Source: a virus (taxonomy: Duplodnaviria > Caudoviricetes). Taken from it: a stretch of 43,950 nt of DNA. A program made the position numbers and the translations under genes. The notes under the pieces are model-generated. The model was not told the origin of the DNA. It worked only from the letters and a program-made list of their open reading frames with translations, and ran no database searches. How positions within the stretch are numbered: position 1 is the first letter of the stretch; every line of letters begins with the position of its first letter. Shown piece after piece: positions 1,418 through 43,950 of the stretch. The stretch is from IMG/VR virus record IMGVR_UViG_3300012041_000032, positions 1-43,950 of that record. One strand, given 5' to 3'.

Positions 1418-2410
1418 TTAGGCTAACATCTCATCGGGCGTCCGGTACTCCATCCGCTCCAGGTCGGCGCCGATGCGCTTCAAGTAGCGGTCGGTGGTTG
1501 CGGCTTTCGAGTGCCCGAGGAATTGCTGGACCATCTTGAGGTTCGTGGACTCGGCGTAAAGCTCGCTCGCGGCGGTGTGGCGAAGGCGGTGGACGGTCGC
1601 GTTCTCGACGCCCGCATAGTCGGCAAGGTTGCGAATCATCTTCCACATCGTCGTGTAGCCCATCGGAGTGCGGCGAAGGGTAATCCAAACGGGGTCACTT
1701 GGGCGCGGTTCGCCGGGAATCCAACGCTTGCGGGCCTCGCGCCACGCTTTCAGCGCCGGGTACGCTTTCGCGCCGATGCGAGCGGTGCGTTCCTTCTCGC
1801 CTTTGCCGAGGACCTTGATGCGGCGGTTGGCCCAATCGACCTGGCGCCATTGGAGCGTGACGATTTCGGACGCCCGGCAGCCGCTCGAAAGCAGGAGTAA
1901 GAGCAGCGCCCGGTCGCGGGCCTCGATAACGGGGTCGTCCTTGTAGGAGATCCACCGGAGAAGGCGCTGGACTTCTTCGCGGGAGAAGCCTTCGCGGATG
2001 AGCTTCGATTGAACGGGCTTGCGGACGCGGCGCATCGGCGAGCGCGCAACGTAGTCCATCATCTCCGCCCAATTCCAGAAGGCCCGCAGATAGCCGAAGA
2101 TGCCGTCGATGGTGGCGGTACTGAGGCGGTCGCCGCGGTCGCCATCCCGGCGCTTCGTGGTGCGCGGGCGTTCGGCCTCGTGGCGCATAAACGCCGTCAG
2201 GTGCCCCGACGTGGCCTCGTGGCAGTAGGTGGCGCCCTGGGCGGTCAAGAAGGGCAGCATCCGCGCTTCCACGGCGTCTGCGTAGGATTTCCGGGTCCGA
2301 GGACTGCCGGAGTAGTAGCCATCGAGCCATTCGGAGATGGCTTCCGGCAGAGGGAGGGGTGTCAACACTTGTTGGAAAGCTGACAACGAGACGGATTGGA
2401 TTTGGTTCAC
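1418..2410 (-). CDS. int: Tyrosine recombinase/integrase (XerC/D-like, no obvious arm-binding domain)
   Basis: Catalytic set R (GCRASE), K (GKGEK), HxxR (HRLRH), H (LGH), Y (TDRY); adjacent attP. Confidence 0.95.
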   Translation of the reverse strand: MNQIQSVSLSAFQQVLTPLPLPEAISEWLDGYYSGSPRTRKSYADAVEARMLPFLTAQGATYCHEATSGHLTAFMRHEAERPRTTKRRDGDRGDRLSTATIDGIFGYLRAFWNWAEMMDYVARSPMRRVRKPVQSKLIREGFSREEVQRLLRWISYKDDPVIEARDRALLLLLLSSGCRASEIVTLQWRQVDWANRRIKVLGKGEKERTARIGAKAYPALKAWREARKRWIPGEPRPSDPVWITLRRTPMGYTTMWKMIRNLADYAGVENATVHRLRHTAASELYAESTNLKMVQQFLGHSKAATTDRYLKRIGADLERMEYRTPDEMLA

Positions 2411-2465: not shown

Positions 2466-2499
2466 TGGTGGGCGATACTGGATTCGAACCAGTGACCTC
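2466..2499 (-). other. attP common core = 3' end of a tRNA-Val
   Basis: Minus strand reads GAGGTCACTGGTTCGAATCCAGTATCGCCCACCA (variable loop, T-arm, acceptor 3' strand, CCA). No 5' half present; 55 bp upstream of int. Confidence 0.9.
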
Positions 2500-2588
2500 G
2501 TAGTCCGGCGAATATCTGAGCACTCCAGATTCAAATTCCGGGGGCGTCCCTCCTATCAGTGGTTAGAAAGAGAAGCGTCTTGGGGTAT

Positions 2589-6040: not shown

Positions 6041-6357
6041 TGGCCCTCCTGCAATCGGCGCAACGCCTAGAGGCCGCCATTGTCGCGTGGACGGAAGATG
6101 AGGGGTGGGACGGTCCGCTGATGGACGAATTTACCGGCCCCTCGCTGGACGAATTGCGGGCGGCGATTGATACCGAACCGAAGTGGCAAGAGAACGTGTC
6201 GCGGTTACTCGCGAACATCGGCGACCCCGGCCAATGCCGGGGCTGCGGCGCGGACATCTTTTGGGTGATTCACAAGAACGGCAAGCGCGTGCCGTACACG
6301 CCCCAGGCGCTCAACCATTTCATCGACTGCCCGAAGGCACAGGAGTTCAAGCGATGA
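6040..6357 (+). CDS. Zinc-ribbon protein
   Basis: TAATG coupling; CRGCGADIFW...HFIDC. Confidence 0.7.
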   Translation: MALLQSAQRLEAAIVAWTEDEGWDGPLMDEFTGPSLDELRAAIDTEPKWQENVSRLLANIGDPGQCRGCGADIFWVIHKNGKRVPYTPQALNHFIDCPKAQEFKR

Positions 6358-7403
6358 CGACTGCATTGACGGTTACCAAGCCCACGGGGCGCGAAGTCGT
6401 GTTCACCGCGGCACAAGAGGCCATTGTCCGCGAGATGATGCTGCCGGGGCTGGACCAGCTACAGGCCGACTACTTCCTCGAAGTCTGCCGCGTGCGGCGC
6501 CTGAACCCGCTGGCGAAGCAGATTCACCCCGTCATCCATATGGTGAAGAAGAAGGGGAGCAACGAGCGGGAGCCGCGCCTGACGATAATCACGGGCGTCG
6601 ATGGGTTCCGCCTCAACTCTTCCCGCTCGGGCGAGTACGAAGGTCAGACCTCGCCGGAGTGGTGCGGCGACGATTCTATCTGGCGTGATGTGTGGCTGGA
6701 GGACGAACCGCCGAAGGCCGCGCGCGTCGGCGTCTACCGGCGCGGCTTCCGCGAGGCAGTGTACGGCGTCGTCACATGGAAGAGTTACGCACAGTACGTT
6801 CCCCGATGGGAGAACGGCCAGCAAGTCGGCTCGAAGCTCTCGGAGATGTGGGACCGCAGCGGGCCGGAGCAGCTGGCGAAGTGTGCGGAAGCCCAGGCCC
6901 ATCGCAAAGCGTTCCCCGAAGAGTGCTCGGACATGTTCGAGGCCGCGGAGATGGGTGTCGTGGAGCGGGTAGTGTCGGCCGAAGATGAGCGCCGCGCATC
7001 GCCGCGCATCCCCGAACAGCCAAAGCGATTGGCTCCTGCCGCCAAGAAGAAGCCCAAGAGCGCCGCGACAATCCAGCGCGATCAGCCGGAGCAGGAGCCG
7101 TTCGCCGCCGCCGAAGCAATCGACGGCGAGGTTGTAGCAGAGGGGGGCTTGCCATCGGAGACCGGGCAGTCGGCGTCGGAAGCGCGGGCTGAGCCGGGTT
7201 CATTGAACTCCGGGCAAGCCCCCTTCGGTGAGTTCTGGAACGGGCTGGTGAGCCGGAAGCTGGGGCCGATGCCGGATGTCTACGCGGCCATCGGAATCGA
7301 CGCGAACATGCCGGCGCTGCGGGCCTGGTACACGGAGAACGGCGAATCGCTGGAGCTTCTGGACTACGTTCAGGAGGCTGTTGCCGCGGCGAAGGGGGAG
7401 TAG
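6354..7403 (+). CDS. bet: Single-strand annealing recombinase, Bet/RecT family
   Basis: LNPLAKQIH, GVDGFR, W..GPEQLAKCAEAQAHRKAFP. Confidence 0.9.
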   Translation: MTTALTVTKPTGREVVFTAAQEAIVREMMLPGLDQLQADYFLEVCRVRRLNPLAKQIHPVIHMVKKKGSNEREPRLTIITGVDGFRLNSSRSGEYEGQTSPEWCGDDSIWRDVWLEDEPPKAARVGVYRRGFREAVYGVVTWKSYAQYVPRWENGQQVGSKLSEMWDRSGPEQLAKCAEAQAHRKAFPEECSDMFEAAEMGVVERVVSAEDERRASPRIPEQPKRLAPAAKKKPKSAATIQRDQPEQEPFAAAEAIDGEVVAEGGLPSETGQSASEARAEPGSLNSGQAPFGEFWNGLVSRKLGPMPDVYAAIGIDANMPALRAWYTENGESLELLDYVQEAVAAAKGE

Positions 7404-7729: not shown

Positions 7730-7839
7730 ATCGCCTCGTGCGTTGCCCCCTGTGCGAACTCTGGACGCTGCCGGTGCCCGATGAGGCATTCTGCCCGACG
7801 CATGGGCCCATCCCCTATCCAGGGCGGCCGAATCCGTGA
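7726..7839 (+). CDS. 37-aa zinc-finger micropeptide, not in ORF track
   Basis: MNRLVRCPLCELWTLPVPDEAFCPTHGPIPYPGRPNP; ATGA and GTGA overlaps on both sides. Confidence 0.6.
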   Translation: MNRLVRCPLCELWTLPVPDEAFCPTHGPIPYPGRPNP

Positions 7840-10013
7840 CTCCCACTCGCCATTGGTCCCGCGAGGAGATACTGGCGCTGCTTGGGCCGGTGAAGCCGAT
7901 AACGGGCGGCGACGTGATGGCCCATTGCCCCGGCCACGCCGACGGGCAGAAGCACAAGATGAAAGGCGGGCACTCGCTCATCGTCCACCCCGACGGGACG
8001 GCCAAATGCTTCGCGGGGTGCTCGTGGCCGCAGATTGAAACGGCGCTGGTGGCGCTCGGGGGCAGCCGGTCGCATGGCCACAGGGTAGCCACAATCCCGC
8101 CCGTGCGCCCGGCGAAGGACGGCGGCGCGAAGTGGATGCATATCGAGTCCTACGACTACGGCCTGGCGGTCAAGGCGCGGTTCGAGCGGCCTGACCCGGA
8201 CTCGGAGAAGGGCTACGAAAAGCGGTTCGCTTGGCGGTTGCCGGCCGCGCAGAAGTGGAGCGGGTTCGAGGGCAAGTACAGCGTCCACGACATGCCGCTT
8301 TACGGCGCGGCGGAGATTGCCGGCGACACGACGCGCGCGGTGTGGTTCTGCGAGGGTGAGAAGGCGACCGCGGCGATACGGAAGGCCGGCGAAATAGCGG
8401 TGTGCGGCGCGTGGGGCGCGTCTCAGCGCGAGTACGGCGATGCGCTCGAGGTATTGCGGGGCCGGAACGTCATCTTGTGGCCTGACAACGACCAGGTGGG
8501 CCGCGAGTACATGCGCGAGGTTCGGAAGGTGCTGCGGCCGCTGGCGAAGTCGATTACGGTGGTCGATGCGCCCGTGCCGCCTGGTGGCGATGCCGTGGAG
8601 TTCTTCAAGGCTGGCGGCAAGGTCGAGGACCTGCTGGCGGGTGTGGTGTTCGAGGCAACGGTCGATGTGCTGGCGGCGGACCGGCTGACGGTGCGGATGC
8701 CGGGCGATTCGGGCGGGGTGATTGCGTTCGAGTTCGCGGACATGCATTACAAGCGCGAGGCGCTGGAGGCGAACCTGGCGGTGCGGCCCTCGTGGGACAC
8801 GGAGAGCTACGAGCAGTTCATCAACCTCAAATCGCAGAGCACGTTCGAGGGGCTGGTGCGCGTGCTCAAGGGGCTGTTCGCGGATACCGACCGGCCGCAG
8901 AACTGGACGCGGGCGGTGCAGTTGGCCTACTCCCGCGTAAAGAAGGCATACGACGAAGTAGAGCGCGCCATCCAGGTCGATTCGCTGCCGGACTACGGCG
9001 AAAACGTGTTCATGGTGGACTCGCTGGTCCCGCTGGGGACGACCACGGTGTTCTTCGGGCGCGGCAAGTCGGGGAAGTCAACGCTGGTGAAGGCGCTGGC
9101 GCTGGAAATCGCGATGGGCGGTGCGTTTCTCGGCCATAAGGTGAGGCACCCCGGCGGCGTGATTGTGGTGGACTACGAAGATGCGCGGGCGTGCAAGCGC
9201 GAGTTTCGGCGCATCCTCTCGGGCGCGGGATTGGACCCGGACATCCTGGGCGAGCTGCCGATTCACTTCTGGCCGACGAACGGCGAGGCGCTGGTTACGC
9301 AGATACCGGGCATCCGGCGATTCGCGGAGAAGCACGAAGCCGTGGCGATGATCGTGGACTCCGCGATGCCCGCGTGTGGTGGCGAGCCTGAGAAGCCTGA
9401 GCCGGCCCTTTCGTTCTTCAACGGACTCAACTCCCTCGGCCTGACGAACCTCGTGGTCTCGCACGTCTCGTGGGGCGAAGTGGAGAACGGGTTGCGCCGG
9501 CCGTATGGCAACGTGGCCTGGGAGAACATGCCGCGGCGCTTGTGGGCGGTCCATGCCGATGTCGAGGCGATGAAAAGCCCGCGTGACGTGATGCTCAAAT
9601 GCACGGCGACGAACGGCTCGTGGCCGGACCCGATTAGCTACCGGACCTACTTCCGCGGGCATCCCGACTTCGGGCCTATCGAGTTCGTGCGGACTGAGGT
9701 TGCGGACACGCCGGAGTTCACGCACGCGCTGCCGATGGATAAGCAACTGGCGCGAGTGCTGGCGGATGAACCGGCGGGGCTGGAGCTTCCGCAGATATGC
9801 GAGAAGCTGGCGGGGAACCCGAAGTTGGAAAGCGTGCGGGCGGTGCTGAACCGGAACAAGGAGCAATTCGAGGGCGAGCGCGTCGGCGCCGGGCGAGGGG
9901 CGCGGACAGTCTGGCGGCTGATCCAGTACATCCCGGTCTGCACGCGCTGCGGGATGCCGTCGGTCGGGGTGAACGCGACGGGGCAGGAAGCGTGTGAGGT
10001 TCATGATGGGTAA
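7836..10013 (+). CDS. DNA primase-helicase (Zn-binding + TOPRIM + RecA-like AAA)
   Basis: CPGH..CFAGC, CEGEK and WPDND (TOPRIM), Walker A GRGKSGKS, Walker B MIVDS. Confidence 0.9.
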   Translation: MTPTRHWSREEILALLGPVKPITGGDVMAHCPGHADGQKHKMKGGHSLIVHPDGTAKCFAGCSWPQIETALVALGGSRSHGHRVATIPPVRPAKDGGAKWMHIESYDYGLAVKARFERPDPDSEKGYEKRFAWRLPAAQKWSGFEGKYSVHDMPLYGAAEIAGDTTRAVWFCEGEKATAAIRKAGEIAVCGAWGASQREYGDALEVLRGRNVILWPDNDQVGREYMREVRKVLRPLAKSITVVDAPVPPGGDAVEFFKAGGKVEDLLAGVVFEATVDVLAADRLTVRMPGDSGGVIAFEFADMHYKREALEANLAVRPSWDTESYEQFINLKSQSTFEGLVRVLKGLFADTDRPQNWTRAVQLAYSRVKKAYDEVERAIQVDSLPDYGENVFMVDSLVPLGTTTVFFGRGKSGKSTLVKALALEIAMGGAFLGHKVRHPGGVIVVDYEDARACKREFRRILSGAGLDPDILGELPIHFWPTNGEALVTQIPGIRRFAEKHEAVAMIVDSAMPACGGEPEKPEPALSFFNGLNSLGLTNLVVSHVSWGEVENGLRRPYGNVAWENMPRRLWAVHADVEAMKSPRDVMLKCTATNGSWPDPISYRTYFRGHPDFGPIEFVRTEVADTPEFTHALPMDKQLARVLADEPAGLELPQICEKLAGNPKLESVRAVLNRNKEQFEGERVGAGRGARTVWRLIQYIPVCTRCGMPSVGVNATGQEACEVHDG

Positions 10014-11511
10014 GAGAATCGATCTTGGGGTAGCACCCCCGGCAGGGGCACCGTTTCCAGACTTGGCACCCCGGAGCCTTGCGGCGGTGCCGACTGTCGG
10101 CAGTGACGGGTTCGTGACATTGCTCCAGGGTGACGCGCTTACCGTGCTGCGGACGCTCCCCGACGGCGCGGCGCAGATGTGCGTTTGCTCGCCTCCATAC
10201 TGGGGCCTTCGCGACTACGGGTGCGATGGGCAGCTCGGGCTGGAATCGACGCCCGAGGAGTACGTCGCGCGGATGGTGGAGGTGTTCGCCGAGGTGCGCA
10301 GGGTACTGAGGGACGACGGCGTTCTTTTTCTCAATATTGGGGATTCTTACGCCTCTGCCACATCCGATCGAACCCTGTCTCGCCCGCCCTCGCGTGCTCC
10401 TGCATGTGGCATTGATGGCACAGAACAATCAGGTTCGCGGGTTCCTGGTTTCGCTTGTTTCGGTCTATGTGGTGGATGTTCAAGCGCTCGGGAGATCCGC
10501 AGTGCTGACAACTCCCAACCGCCTCGCGCCGTCGCCGCGCCTCTGCCGCTGACAGACCGTGGTAACGGGCATCGGGATTCCGAGCTAGCGCCTCCTGGCG
10601 ACGGGCTTCTCGGCGCTCAGGTGTCCACCACTCCCGAGTCTTGCGCGCACCCTCTGGATTGCTGTTGCCACTGCTCCAATTGTGGGGCTTGCCTAGCAGT
10701 GCTTTCGTCATCTTCTCGCGATGCTCAGGAGTGCGTTCGTACGGGCCAGTACACGGACGGCACTTCGCCGCTCGGGTTGGCTGGCCGCAATCAGGGCATG
10801 GGTGTTTCGGACTCGGCATGGGGATATTCTACCACGGCGTCCCTCAAGCCGAAGGACCTCGTAGGAATCCCCTGGATGCTCGCCTTCGCCCTGCGTGCTG
10901 ACGGGTGGTATCTGCGCTCGGACATTATCTGGAGCAAGCCGAACCCGATGCCTGAGTCGGTGACAGACCGGCCCACGAAGGCACACGAATACCTTTTTTT
11001 GCTGAGCAAACGGGAGCGGTATCACTACGACGCGGGGGCGATCCGGGAGAACTGGACTTCGGGGCGCGATGACATGCGAGAGAACGGCATCCGTACCGGA
11101 ATTGCCTACTGGCAGAACGGCGTCGCCTCGAACGATGTAAAGCCTCGCGCCACGGCCAAGCAGCGCGGGCACTCCCGCCGCCACGCCGGTTTCAACGACC
11201 GATGGGATGCGATGGAGAAGTCCGAACAGCAGGTGAACGGGCGCAACAAGCGTTCTGTCTGGACAATCGCCACCGAGCCTTACCCCGAGGCGCACTTCGC
11301 CACCTTCCCTACCGCGCTCGTGAAGCCGTGCATTCTCGCGGGCTGTCCCGAGGGTGGCACGGTTTTAGATCCGTTCGCCGGTTCAGGGACTACGCTCCAG
11401 GTAGCAAAGGAACTTGGGCGCAAGAGCATCGGCATCGAGCTGAACCCCGAGTACATCGTGCTCATCGAGAAGCGCATGGCGCGGGTAACGACGCCGATGT
11501 TCCATGCCTAG
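10003..11511 (+). CDS. Beta-class N4-cytosine/N6-adenine DNA methyltransferase with ~165-aa in-frame insertion
   Basis: SPPY (motif IV), LNIGDSY, LKPKDLVGIPW, HFATFP, DPFAGSGTT (motif I). Confidence 0.92.
   Translation: MMGKRIDLGVAPPAGAPFPDLAPRSLAAVPTVGSDGFVTLLQGDALTVLRTLPDGAAQMCVCSPPYWGLRDYGCDGQLGLESTPEEYVARMVEVFAEVRRVLRDDGVLFLNIGDSYASATSDRTLSRPPSRAPACGIDGTEQSGSRVPGFACFGLCGGCSSAREIRSADNSQPPRAVAAPLPLTDRGNGHRDSELAPPGDGLLGAQVSTTPESCAHPLDCCCHCSNCGACLAVLSSSSRDAQECVRTGQYTDGTSPLGLAGRNQGMGVSDSAWGYSTTASLKPKDLVGIPWMLAFALRADGWYLRSDIIWSKPNPMPESVTDRPTKAHEYLFLLSKRERYHYDAGAIRENWTSGRDDMRENGIRTGIAYWQNGVASNDVKPRATAKQRGHSRRHAGFNDRWDAMEKSEQQVNGRNKRSVWTIATEPYPEAHFATFPTALVKPCILAGCPEGGTVLDPFAGSGTTLQVAKELGRKSIGIELNPEYIVLIEKRMARVTTPMFHA
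10009..10033 (+). repeat. Cassette left end B1 (24/25 identical to 11525..11549)
   Basis: GGTAAGAGAATCGATCTTGGGGTAG. Confidence 0.9.
10331..10819 (-). CDS. HNH endonuclease nested antisense in the methyltransferase
   Basis: CQHCG...NIHHIDRNKRNQEPANLIVLCHQCHMQEH; NUMOD3-like RTPEHREKM; own promoter candidate. Confidence 0.85.
   Translation of the reverse strand: MPSPKHPCPDCGQPTRAAKCRPCTGPYERTPEHREKMTKALLGKPHNWSSGNSNPEGARKTREWWTPERREARRQEALARNPDARYHGLSAAEARRRREAVGSCQHCGSPERLNIHHIDRNKRNQEPANLIVLCHQCHMQEHARAGETGFDRMWQRRKNPQY
10826..10834 (-). promoter_or_regulatory. Extended -10 leaderless promoter for the nested HNH
   Basis: TGG-TAGAAT, 6 nt before ATG 10819. Confidence 0.7.
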
Positions 11512-12895
11512 GAAGGTGTCTCTTGGTAAGAGAATCGGTCTTGGGGTAGGAAGGAGCCTTTCAAATGTGGATTCATGTACCGAACAGCTACTTAGTCTCT
11601 GCACCGGAGCCGGGGGACTCGACCGAGGCGTCCACATGGCGCTCGGAAATGCTCGCACGGTCTGCGTCGTTGAATACGAAGCAAGCGCCATCGAGCTCCT
11701 GGTTACGCGCATGGAAGAAGGGCACCTGGACGACTGCCCTGTTTGGACGAATTTGCACACCTTCCGAGGCAGAGAGTGGCGTGGCCGCGTTTCGGGAGTC
11801 GTTGCTGGAATACCCTGCCAGCCGCACAGCGTGGCCGGAAAGGGACTCGGGGCAGACGACGAGCGTGACCTCTGGCCTGTCACTGCAACCCTCCTTCGAG
11901 ATGTTCGGCCTCGATGGTTCTTCCTCGAAAACGTCCCCGGAATCCTCGGGTACTACTTTGAGCGCATCCGGCCCGAGCTATCGGCTATGGGTTACTGCGT
12001 TGCGGAAGTCCTCGTCACGGCGGCGGAAGTTGGGGCGCCACACCAGCGCGAACGCCTCTTCGTACTGGCAACCAGAAGGTGCGGAATGGCGGACACCGGA
12101 CGCTCCGGGGCAGGGTGGGCCACGGAACAGGCAAGCGAGCCGGGGACACGGGCACCAGGAGACGATTGGGGAACAGGCCGAGAACTGGCCCACGCCCCGC
12201 TCGGAGGACTCGGAGAGCGCGGGGAACCATCCGAAGGCGACCGACAGCCTGACGGGAGCGACGACCGACTGGCAGACACCAGCGGCGGACAGCTTCCGCA
12301 GCCGGGGCGGGGAGCGGGTAGCGGAGATGGGGCTGGACCAACAGGCGCGGGGATGGTGGGCAACACCGAGGGCGGTGGAGGGCAAGACAGGCCCGGAGGG
12401 GAGCGCGAGCTTCGCCTACAGGCTGGAGAAGGGGTATCTGGACGCTCAAGCCGAGAACTGGATTACGCCCTCAGCGAACGAGGACACAGCGGGCACGGTG
12501 GACGGCCAGATGCAACAGATGCTGACCCACCAATCCAAGTCTTTCCTCCCGGCTACTGCCGACGCGGAGACAACCGCCCCTGCTGGGAAGACGGATGCCC
12601 AACCTGCGACGCCTGGAGACGAATCCTTGCCGAGCGCCCCGACCTCGCGCCGGCAACTCAACCCCAAATTCGTGTCCTGGATGATGGGCTGGGAACCATC
12701 TTGGACCTCCCTCGCGCCGCTCAGTTGCGACTCACGGGAAACGGGGTTGTACCTCAACAGGCCGCCTACGCCTTCCGGCTCCTCCAACTGGCCCACGCCG
12801 GACACGCAGAACATTCGGGGGGGGCGATGAGGGCTGAGACGAAGGGGGCGCACGCGCTGTCCCTGCACCACGCGGTGGAGGGTTGGAGTGCCTAG
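11504..12895 (+). CDS. C5-cytosine DNA methyltransferase, alpha chain (alternative start GTG 11567)
   Basis: LCTGAGG (I), GIPCQPHS (IV), LENV (VI), QRERLF (VIII), RLTGNGVVP (X); motif IX absent from this frame. Confidence 0.9.
   Translation: MPRKVSLGKRIGLGVGRSLSNVDSCTEQLLSLCTGAGGLDRGVHMALGNARTVCVVEYEASAIELLVTRMEEGHLDDCPVWTNLHTFRGREWRGRVSGVVAGIPCQPHSVAGKGLGADDERDLWPVTATLLRDVRPRWFFLENVPGILGYYFERIRPELSAMGYCVAEVLVTAAEVGAPHQRERLFVLATRRCGMADTGRSGAGWATEQASEPGTRAPGDDWGTGRELAHAPLGGLGERGEPSEGDRQPDGSDDRLADTSGGQLPQPGRGAGSGDGAGPTGAGMVGNTEGGGGQDRPGGERELRLQAGEGVSGRSSRELDYALSERGHSGHGGRPDATDADPPIQVFPPGYCRRGDNRPCWEDGCPTCDAWRRILAERPDLAPATQPQIRVLDDGLGTILDLPRAAQLRLTGNGVVPQQAAYAFRLLQLAHAGHAEHSGGAMRAETKGAHALSLHHAVEGWSA
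11505..11549 (+). repeat. Cassette junction A1+B2 sharing a GG
   Basis: TGCCTAGGAAGGTGTCTCTT-GG-TAAGAGAATCGGTCTTGGGGTAG; central dyad TCTCTT-GGT-AAGAGA. Confidence 0.9.
11565..12830 (+). CDS. C5 methyltransferase beta chain in overlapping frame (WxTP repeats + motif IX)
   Basis: AAGGAG RBS; six WxTP units; RQLNPKFVSWMMGW resembles motif IX. Confidence 0.8.
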   Translation: MWIHVPNSYLVSAPEPGDSTEASTWRSEMLARSASLNTKQAPSSSWLRAWKKGTWTTALFGRICTPSEAESGVAAFRESLLEYPASRTAWPERDSGQTTSVTSGLSLQPSFEMFGLDGSSSKTSPESSGTTLSASGPSYRLWVTALRKSSSRRRKLGRHTSANASSYWQPEGAEWRTPDAPGQGGPRNRQASRGHGHQETIGEQAENWPTPRSEDSESAGNHPKATDSLTGATTDWQTPAADSFRSRGGERVAEMGLDQQARGWWATPRAVEGKTGPEGSASFAYRLEKGYLDAQAENWITPSANEDTAGTVDGQMQQMLTHQSKSFLPATADAETTAPAGKTDAQPATPGDESLPSAPTSRRQLNPKFVSWMMGWEPSWTSLAPLSCDSRETGLYLNRPPTPSGSSNWPTPDTQNIRGGR

Positions 12896-13172
12896 GAAAG
12901 TGTCTCTTGGGCGTATCATCGCCACCAAGAGCGAATCTGCCGCGAAGGAGAAGCCGCGTGCGCGGATGGGGATGGCCGAAGCGAAGGCGGGCGGGCGCTG
13001 CCAGTGTGAGGGGTGCGGCGCGTGCAACGGCCTTGCGGGGTTCCCGTGCTGCGCGCTCATCGGTCCGGGGCCGTCGTTGTGCCGCTGGTGCGCTCCGAGG
13101 CCGCCTGAATGCGGTGGGTGCCTGATGCATTGGGAGCGGCTGCAAGCGAAGCGAAAGGCGGCGCGGGGATGA
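12888..13172 (+). CDS. Cys-rich small protein
   Basis: CQCEGCGAC...CC...CRWC...CGGC; coupled on both sides. Confidence 0.6.
   Translation: MPRKVSLGRIIATKSESAAKEKPRARMGMAEAKAGGRCQCEGCGACNGLAGFPCCALIGPGPSLCRWCAPRPPECGGCLMHWERLQAKRKAARG
12889..12910 (+). repeat. Cassette right end A2 (21/22 identical to 11505..11526)
   Basis: TGCCTAGGAAAGTGTCTCTTGG. Confidence 0.9.
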
Positions 13173-13582
13173 GCGGCTACGACTGGCAGAAAGCCCAAGA
13201 GCGCCGGGTGAAGCTGCGCGAGCGGCATGGCGTTTGGGAGCCTGCCCACTGCTCCGAGATGTTTGGGGACAACGCAGAAAAGCGGTGCGTGAAATGCGGC
13301 GCGCCGCTCACGGGCCGTCAGCAGCGATGGTGCTCGACGGAGTGCGTGGTTTGGTACATGCAAAACCACCTGTTCGGCTCGGCACGCCGCGCTGTTCAGA
13401 ACTCCGCCACGGCGTGCGCGATGTGCGGGGGGCCGCTCGGCTCGGACATCGAGGTAGACCACATCGAGGCGGCGAACGGCGCACACGCCCTAAAGTCGTG
13501 CCTTCACCACCTCACCAACCTTCGCGCCCTTCACGGCCAGTGTCACCGCGAGCGAACCCGCGAGCAAAGGCGGCGGCGGTGA
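13169..13582 (+). CDS. HNH endonuclease
   Basis: CAMCG...EVDHI...NLRALHGQCH, plus N-terminal CVKCG..WCSTEC. Confidence 0.85.
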   Translation: MSGYDWQKAQERRVKLRERHGVWEPAHCSEMFGDNAEKRCVKCGAPLTGRQQRWCSTECVVWYMQNHLFGSARRAVQNSATACAMCGGPLGSDIEVDHIEAANGAHALKSCLHHLTNLRALHGQCHRERTREQRRRR

Positions 13583-13648
13583 ACTATCGAGAAGGGCGCG
13601 AAGGTTGGTGAGGTTGCGGATTGGCCGAGGGACGATTCCCACAACGTC

Positions 13649-17286: not shown

Positions 17287-17411
17287 TCGTCAATGTCTCC
17301 GTTGGTTGGTGTCGGTCTCTACCCCAAGGGGAACGGCCGCAGCGCTATCTAACTCGACCGGGGTATGTGGTGTCAATACCTACCCCCAAGAAACTTTACC
17401 AAACTAGCCTT

Positions 17412-17725
17412 GTTACGCTTTCCTCAGACTCGCTCGTTACGCTTGTTACGCTTTCGGCGCCCCCGTGTTTCGCTTCCTCGTTACGCTTCCCAGGGCATAA
17501 GCGAAACGTGTTCCGCTTTTATCCGTAACGTGTTTCGCTTTCCGCTCCGACAGTGTCTCTTAGATTCAAAGTTGACCGAACTTGACACTACCCCTTACGC
17601 TCTGAAGGCAAGGGCGAACCGCTCCAGCGAAGGCGACCGCAGTCCTACAGTGCTTTGGGCAGGCTCTATGCTTACGCCGCATCCAGCCTCCGGCAGACGA
17701 CAGACGAAATAAAGACGTTTCGCTT
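17412..17725. repeat. Cluster of 9-bp GTT(A/T/C)CGCTT repeats (iteron- or packaging-site-like)
   Basis: Copies at 17412, 17436, 17445, 17467, 17480, 17499 (inverted), 17510, 17532, 17717. Confidence 0.85.
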
Positions 17726-19121: not shown

Positions 19122-19148
19122 AGCGTCTTGGGGTAGGATTTCGCCTGT

Positions 19149-42976: not shown

Positions 42977-43950
42977 GCGAAATCGTCATCACGCAGACCG
43001 AATTGGCGGACATCTCCGAGGACATCGTGCGGCGGCTGGCCCCGCGTTCGACCGCGGCGGAAGTGGAGCGCATTCGGCGGAAGCTGCGGGAAGTCGCGAG
43101 CGGCGTCCAACTGAACCAGGCGCTCACCCAAATCCTCAACACGACCACGGAGTCGAACACGGCGACGTTGGAGGCGATCGAGACGATCGCGGAGTTCCTT
43201 GAGCAGATTGCCAGCCTCGGCGAGTTCGGCATCCAGTGGCCGTTCAACAACGCTTCCGTCACCGACCTCACGGTTGCGGCTCCGGCTAACCTCTCGCTGA
43301 CCGACGGCGTGGCGATGTACCGGGACGTGACGGTCAATAGCACCCTTACCGTGACCTCCAGTCCGGCGTTCCTGTTCTGCCGCAACCTCGTGCTTGGGGC
43401 CTCGGGGATTATCTCTGCCGATGGGGTTGGCGCGGCGGGCGGGGCGGCCGCTACAGGCCCAGCGGGGACAGTCGGCGAAACCGGAGATACTGGCTCCGGG
43501 CAGGTTGTCGGGAATGACCAGAATGGCACGGTCGGCACCGCAGGGAATGCCGGACAGAACGGCTACTACGGCGGGGACGCCCTGCACGGCATCGCCACTG
43601 GCGGCTCGGGGGGCGGTGGCGGTGGCACCCAGCACGCGGGCGACGGTGGTAGCGGCAGCGGGGGTGGCTCCACGGGAGGGGTAGCGGGCGGGGACAACAC
43701 TGGCGGAGCGGGAGGCGACGGTGGAGATTCGGGAAGCACAACAGCCCTTGCCGGACCATCGGGCGGTACGGCAGGCGCCGTCCTTGGCGGCAATGGCGGC
43801 GCCGGGACGGCCGGTTCGCGAACGCATCTCCTGAGCGTCTTGGGGTTGCTTATCAGCTACTACCTCGCCCAGCGCGGCGGCAGTGGTGGCGGTGGCGGCG
43901 GCTCGGGCGCTGGTGGCCCTGGTGGTGGCGCTGGCGGCGGCGATGGCGTG
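42973..43950 (+). CDS. Glycine-rich tail-fibre-like protein (3' truncated, not in ORF track)
   Basis: GTG overlapping the previous stop; open to window end; FLFCRNLVLGASGIISADG then GGxGG runs. Confidence 0.75.
   Translation, partial: MSEIVITQTELADISEDIVRRLAPRSTAAEVERIRRKLREVASGVQLNQALTQILNTTTESNTATLEAIETIAEFLEQIASLGEFGIQWPFNNASVTDLTVAAPANLSLTDGVAMYRDVTVNSTLTVTSSPAFLFCRNLVLGASGIISADGVGAAGGAAATGPAGTVGETGDTGSGQVVGNDQNGTVGTAGNAGQNGYYGGDALHGIATGGSGGGGGGTQHAGDGGSGSGGGSTGGVAGGDNTGGAGGDGGDSGSTTALAGPSGGTAGAVLGGNGGAGTAGSRTHLLSVLGLLISYYLAQRGGSGGGGGGSGAGGPGGGAGGGDGV

Follow-up and report, generated by a model that had tools for sequence, protein, structure and literature searches.

Restriction-modification (R-M) genes can insert with a long target duplication and can undergo allelic substitution (Furuta et al. 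2010, PMC2853133). The locus described here resembles the cases treated there in that a methylase-type gene enters at a gene boundary without a mobility gene of its own and is left between direct repeats, and in that unrelated modification genes replace each other at one locus. It resembles the PeSLs of T4-type phages in that short regulatory repeats between nonessential genes act as exchange points (Arbiol et al. 2010, PMC2839356). Homologous recombination between PeSLs can release one-gene circles, which the authors liken to integrons (PMC2839356; PMC4122927), and the T4-type cassettes and mini-circles are described by Comeau et al. 2014 (PMC4122927). Integron cassettes, including those in phages (Qi et al. 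2023, PMC9892861), share with the locus an organization as tight, single-gene tandem modules with little noncoding DNA. IS607-type elements (Chen et al. 2018, PMC6188088) share GG junctions, the lack of terminal inverted repeats and short, directly repeated end motifs. The stoperators of cluster A mycobacteriophages (PMC9283540) are comparable as short, asymmetric motifs repeated near promoters and at gene edges of a temperate phage.

We analyzed a 43,950-nucleotide stretch from the genome of an uncultured, temperate tailed phage (the window; IMG/VR record IMGVR_UViG_3300012041_000032), in which two unrelated DNA methylase genes lie back to back, each with a border repeat of 22 to 25 bases on the left (B) and on the right (A). 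The locus is likely a swappable phage methylase slot with duplicated borders, resembling R-M insertion and substitution. Coordinates refer to the plus strand unless noted. The 25-bp left border B1 (10009..10033) holds an 18-bp unit with a 7-bp spacer (10011-10028) and the motif TCTTGGGGTAG. The 22-bp A1 (11505..11526) carries the stop codon of gene 1 together with a duplicate of the opening codons of the downstream Cys-rich gene, and its 18-bp unit is at 11509-11526. B2 (11525..11549) shares the GG at 11525-11526 with A1, and a 6-bp dyad spans this joint; at the right border, A2 (12889..12910), the Cys-rich gene likely has its native start. A CATG at the end of the upstream primase gene (10002..10005) is repeated before A1 (11503-11506) and is a candidate border of an older insertion. 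The repeat periods are 1516 and 1384 bp. At up to three mismatches, the A and B patterns have exactly two matches each, with none in 100 shuffles; the two copies of each repeat differ by one base, and divergence is immediate outside the repeats. Pattern and frame checks confirmed what the initial annotation had read from the sequence: the shared B-gene-A layout, the repeat coordinates, the GG overlap, the junction dyad and the reading-frame coupling, in which each gene ends at the TAG of A while A opens the next frame. The proposed GG-to-GG join across the pair does create an in-frame downstream open reading frame (ORF), plus a 5-bp dyad whose spacer is 7 bp; it also extends the primase from 725 to 757 amino acids, which had been overlooked.

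Methyltransferase 1 (N6/N4 type, PF01555; 9994..11511) has a frame open from 9994, a likely true start near 10087 and its stop at the TAG in A1. An HNH endonuclease gene (PF01844; 10331..10819, minus strand) lies antisense within its variable loop, which measures 165 amino acids against a median of 36 (range, 7 to 70) in 69 relatives; the methyltransferase frame stays open across the HNH gene. In methyltransferase 2 (C5 type, PF00145; 11504..12895), a purine-rich ribosome site follows immediately on B2 and the stop is the TAG of A2; an overlapping 421-amino-acid ORF with W-x-T-P repeats lies inside this gene in an alternative frame (phrog_1008; 11565..12830). Judging from the sequence and from relatives, each methylase seems to be equipped with a ribosome-binding site and start of its own (~10087 and 11565-11567), so they are likely independent of the start encoded by A or B, a point that had also been overlooked. 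There is support for the proposal that the genes are exchangeable modules of gene size with common borders, and the likely benefit of the pair is two methylation specificities against host restriction.

It went unnoticed in the initial annotation that A and B are themselves variants of a single, directly repeated 18-bp unit, with 11/18 positions identical. This unit, TA[AG]GA-N7-TCTTGG, occurs four times, at gene borders, and its dyad core, A[AG]GA-N7-TCTT, is found in only one further place in the contig. The units of A1 and B2 form an exact 18-bp tandem, and both copy-to-copy mismatches fall within the 7-bp spacers, the arms being free of mismatches, as expected of bound dyads. Tyrosine recombinase core sites have inverted arms around an asymmetric spacer of 6 to 8 bp. 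Both A and B have inverted arms around a 7-bp spacer, but a 4-bp arm pair with a 6- to 8-bp spacer arises in 14% of random 25-mers. GG is found at all three junctions, but the outer two read TGGG and the middle one only GG, so the middle joint lies one base off the longest microhomology. Among 200,000 random GG joints, a 6-bp dyad arose in 1.5%, dyads in both reciprocal products in 0.12% and an 18-bp direct repeat with at least 11 identities in 0.4% (three mutually dependent rates); the middle joint is unusually tidy. The region 9500-13500 contains no sigma70-like promoter site (the method's scope being this promoter type) and one terminator-like site, which lies within gene 1 and outside A and B. 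Folding of the A-B junction, a 6-bp stem only, was not significant (z = -0.80 and -1.12); values were -1.6 and -2.0 at the right junction and +0.4 and +0.1 at the left.

The distal half of B recurs elsewhere in the phage, again unremarked before. Six matches at up to one mismatch were found against 0.32 expected, and the motif is the most overrepresented 9- to 10-mer of the contig, which suggests a role for B outside the slot. A degenerate third B copy with a 6-bp spacer (2568..2588; its local score of 16 exceeds the highest value, 14, reached among 60 resampled windows) lies between the repressor stop and a putative attP, ~70 bp from the latter. Further copies of the motif are located near a leftward TTGACA-type promoter (17319..17329, minus strand), before the large terminase gene (19126-19136) and inside an ORF (43838-43848). 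The motif is phage-wide and operator-like, and B is likely a regulatory border. Unlike stoperators, this putative regulator motif has only ~6 to 8 copies, and its orientation relative to transcription is not uniform.

The flanking genes bear on which border is native. The upstream primase-helicase gene (Toprim and AAA_25; 7836..10013) stops at a TAA inside B1, and the relatives of its product, one of them from a Tepidiformaceae genome, share 42 to 61% identity across the C-terminal region. The small Cys-rich gene (94 amino acids; 12888..13172) belongs to a nameless phage family. All four proteins closely related to its product begin with the peptide encoded by A (they fall into two 90% clusters, with representatives at 65 to 73% identity), and among close relatives the first 14 residues are the best-kept stretch of the N-terminal third (12 to 13 of 14 conserved, versus 6 to 12 of 21 for residues 15 to 35). 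The closest primase relative, P0025 (61%), ends in His-Ala-stop, as A encodes; three of the five relatives end differently (His-Leu-stop twice and His-Val-Lys-stop once). As the homologues start with the A peptide and the closest primase ends as A predicts, the Cys-rich gene probably has its native start in A. The longest contig is 10,935 for both P0025 and the Cys-rich homologue P0002, in which primase and A would be adjacent, to judge from the protein ends. Removing the CATG-to-CATG segment and then the A-to-A segment from the window yields a primase ending in His-Ala-stop followed by an A-started gene; this matches the arrangement suggested for P0025 and P0002 and supports a native A. The empty site that had been proposed, with a GG core, is not supported: it would add 32 residues to the primase, none of the five relatives has the primase end predicted by either the full or the empty form of that site, and the A peptide is kept in all four downstream homologues.

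As previously annotated, the only site-specific recombinase found is a XerC/D-like tyrosine integrase (1418..2410, minus strand), the single PF00589 gene in a contig that is ~63% complete, which bounds the recombinase inventory. It is not an IntI: it scored 54.5 bits against the integron-integrase model TIGR02249 (cutoff, 265), matching at the C terminus only, and its best models are XerC/D-like, all below their cutoffs. No resolvase (0 matches to PF00239), IS110 or Y1 transposase gene was found in the contig. Beside the integrase gene lies a stretch resembling the 3' end of a tRNA, from T arm to CCA (2466..2499, minus strand), the likely attP core of the phage integrase. The arm sequences of this putative attP are unrelated to those of A and B, with 1 to 4 of 11 identities in the 7-bp register and 6 of 11 only with a 5-bp spacer, which is below the 6- to 8-bp range of tyrosine recombinase sites. 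The phage also encodes a Bet/RecT single-strand annealing protein (6183..7403; TIGR01913 above cutoff; PF03837). When either methylase is lost through recombination of B with B or of A with A, the neighbors stay intact and in frame, so the Bet-mediated route put forward earlier as an alternative is plausible. The perfect runs within the repeats (10 to 14 bp) are nevertheless shorter than the minimal pairing of 23 to 27 bp reported for Red-beta (PMC3945230).

Contigs from metagenome runs other than the possible source run, X1, span all three junctions: the left one in X2 and X4, the middle one in X2 and X3, and the right one in X3. No alternative letters are listed there. Depth was ~2 to 6, and contigs rather than reads were compared. 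No excision or circle joint appeared in the contigs of any of the four runs at this depth, and neither A/B with other cargo nor an empty-site allele was found in viral and metagenome collections; in the search for B with a different spacer or cargo, all 11 viral matches lie in low-GC contigs without a partner dyad. The initial annotation had named such absences, together with operator-like behavior of the repeats, as evidence against excisable cassettes. Part of this pattern is observed, namely the absences and the operator-like motif in B, but the negative results for alleles and joints are weak because they come from low-depth contigs and relatives compared at the protein level.

The locus shares with the R-M insertions direct repeats around methylase genes and the absence of a mobility gene inside. 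The units described by Furuta et al. are bacterial, combine restriction and modification genes and have duplications of >30 bp and a sequenced empty allele, whereas the locus has two solitary phage methylases and two chained repeats of 22 and 25 bp, and its empty allele is deduced at the protein level only (P0025 and P0002). PeSLs, as described, are many-copy units of a sigma70 promoter and a stem-loop terminator; A and B, in contrast, have two full copies each, carry coding start and stop signals and lack a consensus promoter, a terminator or a stable fold. Unlike an integron, the locus has no IntI, attC-like single-strand hairpin or attI, its symmetry lies in the middle of a joint, and the start of the host gene itself probably forms the right border; with no circle joint or other cargo in the contigs and collections searched, the integron-like mechanism suggested earlier is not supported. 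Unlike IS607-type elements, the locus has no TnpA, its shared ends are too short for a 20- to 60-bp motif array, and on the right it seems to end in sequence native to the phage. IS607-type 9-bp motifs are absent 20 to 60 bp inside the left end, cassette similarity ending at 25 and 22 bp, and although the terminal GG is present, the relatives' protein ends instead indicate A as the duplicated target.

In the reading that we favor, at a probability of about 60%, the locus is a slot for swappable methylases that was doubled when a single unequal recombination event, not site specific, created a new joint. Its borders are likely scars of ordinary gene swapping that copied the start of the following gene and a motif recurring in the phage. 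The ancestral site would have been primase-A-Cys-rich gene, with the TAG in A as the primase stop. A methylase preceded by B would have entered at the CATG overlap, and sister phages would have held different methylases between the same functional borders, retained because B (primase stop and phage-wide motif) and A (next start) must be kept. A sister-phage fragment may then have recombined through long homology on the right and one short-homology GG joint on the left, duplicating A and B to give B-MT1-A-B-MT2-A; the joint at B2 is the sole one that must be new. Annealing by Bet, whether B x B or A x A, could reduce the pair to an in-frame single-methylase allele and a one-gene circle, probably rarely, as one central mismatch leaves such short perfect runs. 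An inserted gene placed between copies of its neighbor's start signals breaks nothing downstream, and the locus, if read correctly, is a clear snapshot of phages swapping and stacking antirestriction methylases. Against a doubled slot count the tidiness of the middle joint and its offset from the longest microhomology, the mismatches confined to spacers, the B-like site near attP, the short perfect runs and the three primase relatives that end differently; so does the chained two-repeat layout, seen in none of 160 other phage loci.

A less likely alternative treats A and B as recombinase sites that share their arms but differ in their 7-bp spacers. A tyrosine recombinase, be it the integrase of the phage, an enzyme of the host or one encoded in the missing part of the genome, would pair A with A and B with B. 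One-gene circles with an A-B joint would be excised, and insertion at the native A would restore the Cys-rich start; alternatively, cargo would be exchanged between B and A, the leftmost A being lost later. Invariant arms, mismatches in the spacers only, the exact tandem, the unit at four gene borders with a core in one other place, the 6-bp-spacer version adjoining attP and the rarity of the chained layout all fit such sites, and the better-kept residues 1 to 14 of the Cys-rich protein hint at constraint on the DNA. Yet arms of this kind are common in random sequence, those of attP match poorly, an extra left-border deletion is needed, the viral matches included no B whose spacer or cargo differed, and motif copies at promoters and gene edges suit a regulator site equally. 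The fuller version is doubtful: a natural cassette-exchange platform in the replication operon, where a recombinase swaps, excises and stacks methylases while rebuilding the next start, tied to the integration machinery by the B-like site beside attP. It would let the phage retune its methylation pattern; if the dyads are recombinase sites, the cassette system would differ from integrons and offer a compact, natural tool for cassette exchange.

We consider improbable the original model, in which B-gene-A units cross at the GG core and the target is the primase end plus the Cys-rich body. The enzyme behind it would resemble that of integrons or, which suits a GG core without duplication better, be a serine transposase of the IS607 type working in trans; IS607 termini are GG and (G)GG targets are preferred without duplication (PMC6188088). 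The G count is conserved from substrates to products, both hypothetical substrates are dyads (the 0.12% class of random joints), the join is in frame, and no left-border deletion is needed. These points are set against the primase and Cys-rich relatives, two dyads that are not GG centered in the same register, and the lack of an IntI, a resolvase-family gene or an attC-like fold in the contig; the shared ends also stop well short of the motifs reported ~20 to 60 bp inside the left end of IS1535. As the window is a metagenome contig of low depth, assembly might have fused two strains with one methylase each at the short repeats, making the tandem a chimera. With separately assembled X2 and X3 contigs agreeing across the middle junction and repeats shorter than the 31-letter assembly words, this is hardly credible.

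Short border repeats are not confined to this window. Direct repeats of 15 to 35 bp bracket 9 of 66 scorable, unrelated N6/N4 phage methylase loci at a score of at least 14 and 6 of 66 at a score of at least 17; the controls gave 2/612 and 1/612 other genes, 1/600 cross-locus pairs and 1/228 shifted windows. The difference, about 1 in 7 methylases (a small sample) against about 1 in 300 other genes, marks such repeats as a general trait of methylase genes in phages and suggests a general, testable route by which these genes move, a side result that may prove more useful than the locus itself. By eye, the bracketing repeats have no common sequence between phages, and about six of the nine copy a ribosome site or a start codon.

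The two methylase genes are arranged as B-gene-A-B-gene-A, with B a 25-bp left border (10009-10033 and 11525-11549) and A a 22-bp right border (11505-11526 and 12889-12910). Each border has two matches in the window and none in 100 shuffled sequences; its two copies differ by one base, and similarity ends immediately outside the repeats. Gene 1 encodes an N6/N4 methylase (PF01555) and gene 2 a C5 methylase (PF00145); both stop codons lie within A, which also opens the next reading frame. All three junctions are bridged, with the same letters, by contigs from sequencing runs other than the possible source. The tandem is therefore not an assembly error, an explanation that we give practically no weight, and the repeats, genes, and frames are as described in the initial annotation.

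To characterize A, we compared the ends of the flanking proteins with those of their relatives. The start encoded by A is present in all four close homologues (two clusters) of the 94-residue Cys-rich protein encoded 3′ of the second A copy, with one Lys-to-Arg change in one homologue. Full-length primase relatives (n = 5) end one or two residues past a conserved His, as His-Ala (two), His-Leu (two), or His-Val-Lys (one). Placed directly after the primase, A encodes His-Ala-stop, which is how the closest relative, P0025, ends; the longest contigs encoding P0025 and the Cys-rich homologue P0002 are equal in length. The sequence CATG occurs both at the end of the primase gene (10002) and ahead of the first A copy (11503), and in silico removal from CATG to CATG and then from A to A gives a 724-residue primase ending in His-Ala-stop, followed by the A-started gene. 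Because of these starts, ends, and removal product, A is likely the native overlap between the primase stop and the next start, as judged from proteins whose phages might all carry cassettes. The empty site proposed initially, a join of GG (10009-10010) to GG (12909-12910) that deletes 2,900 bp, instead gives a 757-residue primase with a tail of a kind seen in none of the five relatives. With the A peptide kept in the Cys-rich homologues, this product is, on the same protein evidence, likely not the ancestral state. In one of these homologues (P0004), the gene call adds six residues before the A peptide; the frame that would stop in A suggests a gene end there unlike that of the primase, and, judging from this protein, its phage may carry another gene in the slot. 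Codons 7 to 15 of the Cys-rich gene (12904-12931) are spanned by an inverted repeat whose 7-bp arms lie 14 bases apart (fold z, −1.6 and −2.0). The stretch is well kept in the homologues and might serve as a site, at the level of DNA or RNA, within the native junction.

B, on the other hand, contains a motif found throughout the phage. Its distal half, TCTTGGGGTAG, has six matches at ≤1 mismatch (0.32 expected), and the 9- and 10-mers of this motif are the most overrepresented in the contig. Copies are found past the repressor stop (2578), close to a leftward promoter (17319-17329 and about 17390), immediately ahead of the large terminase gene (19126), and within a plus-strand open reading frame (ORF) (43838), the last of which rules out a strictly intergenic distribution. 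When partial copies are included, (G)TCTTGGGGTAG occurs at 2578, 3009, 17319-17390, 18615, 19126, 24070, and 43838, with several copies near promoters or gene edges. The motif is asymmetric and operator- or stoperator-like, and B is likely a regulator-binding site. B also supplies the primase stop; as it holds both this stop and the recurrent motif, its functions would retain it as the left border of whatever gene occupied the slot. The copy at 2568-2588 resembles almost all of B (score of 16; the highest among 60 resampled windows was 14) and lies ∼70 bp from a tRNA T-arm-like stretch (2466-2499), which we take to be a tRNA 3′ end and which is the likely attP core of the integrase. This putative attP sits between the repressor and integrase genes (2410-2590). 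The N terminus of the integrase is short, seemingly without room for an arm-binding domain, and its C terminus is Leu-Ala; together, these features may resemble integration-dependent immunity switches. An unrelated 58.8-kb virus record (G001, with loci L176 to L178) has its own motif, TGTCAGCAC, in 16 copies (0.64 expected).

We propose, with a probability of roughly 0.6, that a methylase slot was doubled by one unequal recombination event, a reading that builds on the observed locus anatomy, frames, motif recurrence, and baseline of other methylase loci. The slot would have the primase on one side and the Cys-rich gene on the other, with functional B and A as its limits, and sister phages would carry unrelated methylases in it. 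A single unequal event, by homology on its right side and through a GG joint on its left, would then have duplicated A and B and stacked the two genes. Computed collapse through either border yields single-gene alleles that are intact and in frame, and it would set one-gene circles free; the locus could therefore function in the manner of PeSL cassettes, although it is not one itself. PeSL shuffling (PMC2839356) and the insertion of restriction-modification genes with target duplication and allelic substitution (PMC2853133) are the closest described processes, but the locus does not formally belong to either. Bet, which scores above the cutoff in the window, would probably collapse the repeats infrequently, because their perfect runs (10 to 14 bp) are shorter than the minimal pairing reported for Red-beta (23 to 27 bp) (PMC3945230). 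This agrees with the single allele seen in four runs: their contigs contain the tandem and, at a depth of about 2 to 6 at which rare alleles may escape, no joints or indels. The excision joints anticipated initially were thus not found in these contigs, which is weak evidence with respect to rare alleles.

A and B are themselves related. The 18-bp units at 11509-11526 and 11527-11544, in direct orientation, agree at 11 of 18 positions (consensus, TA[AG]GA-N7-TCTTGG). Both units are small dyads whose arms flank a 7-bp spacer, and it is in the spacers that the two mismatches between copies lie. Besides the four borders, the dyad core appears in coding sequence at position 224 and, in a version with a 6-bp spacer, at 2568. 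The larger dyad noted earlier at the middle junction is real yet partly a by-product of two small dyads that abut. B may have arisen long ago as a copy of A and since diverged, or a single protein may recognize both. Small dyads of this kind arise in 14% of random 25-mers and are weak evidence alone; among random GG joints, a 6-bp dyad arises in 1.5%, dyads in both reciprocal products in 0.12%, and such an 18-bp direct repeat in 0.4%, figures that are not independent. If A and B were recombinase sites with the same arms and different spacers, the tidy middle joint, the mismatches confined to spacers, and the B-like site beside the putative attP would all be accounted for, but an extra deletion would be required and no enzyme matches; we consider this unlikely, and we likewise doubt that the locus is a natural cassette-exchange platform. 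Neither border matched the putative attP arms of the integrase in the 7-bp register. As annotated initially, the integrase is the only site-specific recombinase found: the contig, estimated to be 63% complete so that more than one-third of the genome could be absent, has one tyrosine recombinase and no detected resolvase, IS110 transposase, or Y1 transposase. The integrase is XerC/D-like and far under the integron-integrase cutoff, and no attC-like fold was found at the junctions, which speaks against the suggested integron-like array; the locus also falls formally outside integrons (PMC9892861). The GG-core model of the initial annotation finds its closest chemistry in IS607 elements (PMC6188088), to which the locus does not formally belong. 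It is contradicted by the relatives' protein ends, and we regard it as improbable. IS200/605-type insertion was rejected for lack of a common 4- to 5-base target motif and of a Y1 transposase, and IS110 insertion for the absence of PF02371.

For a baseline, we took the best 80 of 597 confirmed viral loci for methylase 1 and, after dropping 14 (4 duplicates, 4 near a contig edge, and 6 without a parsed ORF), scored 66 for gene-bracketing direct repeats. Such repeats, 15 to 35 bp long, were found at 9/66 loci at a score of ≥14 and 6/66 at ≥17, compared with 2/612 and 1/612 for other genes in windows of the same sizes (crude ORF calls). Further controls gave 1/600 cross-locus pairs and 1/228 shifted windows. 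Unrelated N6/N4 methylase genes lie between 17- to 35-bp direct repeats at L146:3958-5025, L096:3968-5047, L132:3910-4980, L104:3935-5076, L154:2313-3388, and L117:1981-3031. Most bracketing repeats duplicate the next gene's ribosome site or opening codons (e.g., L146, L096, and L132); visual comparison showed no sequence common to different phages, and internal inverted arms are 2 to 5 bp in the six checked. Given the excess over other genes, a 22- to 25-bp repeat bordering a phage methylase is commonplace and does not call for a dedicated site. A chain of two different repeats occurred in none of 160 methylase and primase loci; the chained layout is a rare feature of this locus.

Neither exact A, exact B, nor relaxed A had a match in viral contigs. 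The B arms with a free spacer had 11, all in loci of 28 to 39% GC without a partner dyad, which we treated as chance. In metagenome contigs, B was found at eight loci, two being the window's own record and six having unrelated flanks and no A. Among the contigs searched, there was thus no carrier of other cargo or of an empty site of the kind suggested in the initial annotation. The A-B junction had one match in GenBank phages (E = 6), the slot region matched plasmids only in methylase cores among the matches listed, and none of eight candidates scored in a 40-residue search for other proteins that begin with the A-B peptide, which is weak evidence. The Cys-rich protein alignment found nothing in viral contigs, and its 16-residue match in a Treponema genome was taken as chance; in the protein atlas, this protein matched only unnamed viral clusters, at under 0.9. 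Full-length primase matches in viral contigs were ≤31% identical, and the best primase record (G001) had no long match to the window among those listed and lacked the motif. In titles and abstracts, covering few subscription journals, we found no description of such a layout or of phage methylases in start-duplicating repeats.

The methylase genes have further features of their own. A complete HNH gene (10331-10819, minus strand) lies antisense in the variable loop of methylase 1, whose frame stays open; the loop is 165 residues long, compared with a median of 36 (range, 7 to 70) in 69 measurable relatives, a set that leaves out a few long-span loci (e.g., L118, L160, and L165). The element TG-N-TAGAAT 6 bases ahead of the HNH gene's ATG suggests a leaderless transcript. 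In run X3, contigs have other letters at 10953, 10965, and 11276 of the methylase 1 gene, which shows that the sample also contains a related methylase, carried by another strain or phage. Nearly the whole C5 methylase gene (11565-12895) is overlapped by a 421-residue alternative-frame ORF with W-x-T-P repeats, the two starts lying 2 bases apart after one ribosome site. A G-run near 12820 is followed by a further repeat-like unit in the methylase frame as far as the second A copy.

Scanning 57 of the 267 listed ORFs of the 43,950-bp linear record, we found a tyrosine integrase, an HTH repressor, exonucleases, Bet/RecT, a primase-helicase, terminase subunits, and a capsid protein; no Rfam families or whole tRNAs were found. 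The host is likely in the Chloroflexota, since the source named for one primase relative is a Tepidiformaceae genome. A second HNH gene (13109-13582) is overlapped at its 3′ end by an inverted repeat (13509-13614) whose 27-bp arms are 96% identical and 52 bases apart. Upstream of the small terminase gene, at 17400-17600, GTTACGCTT occurs four times, along with a 10-bp stretch (about 17552) matching the A half-site; this region may serve packaging or late control.
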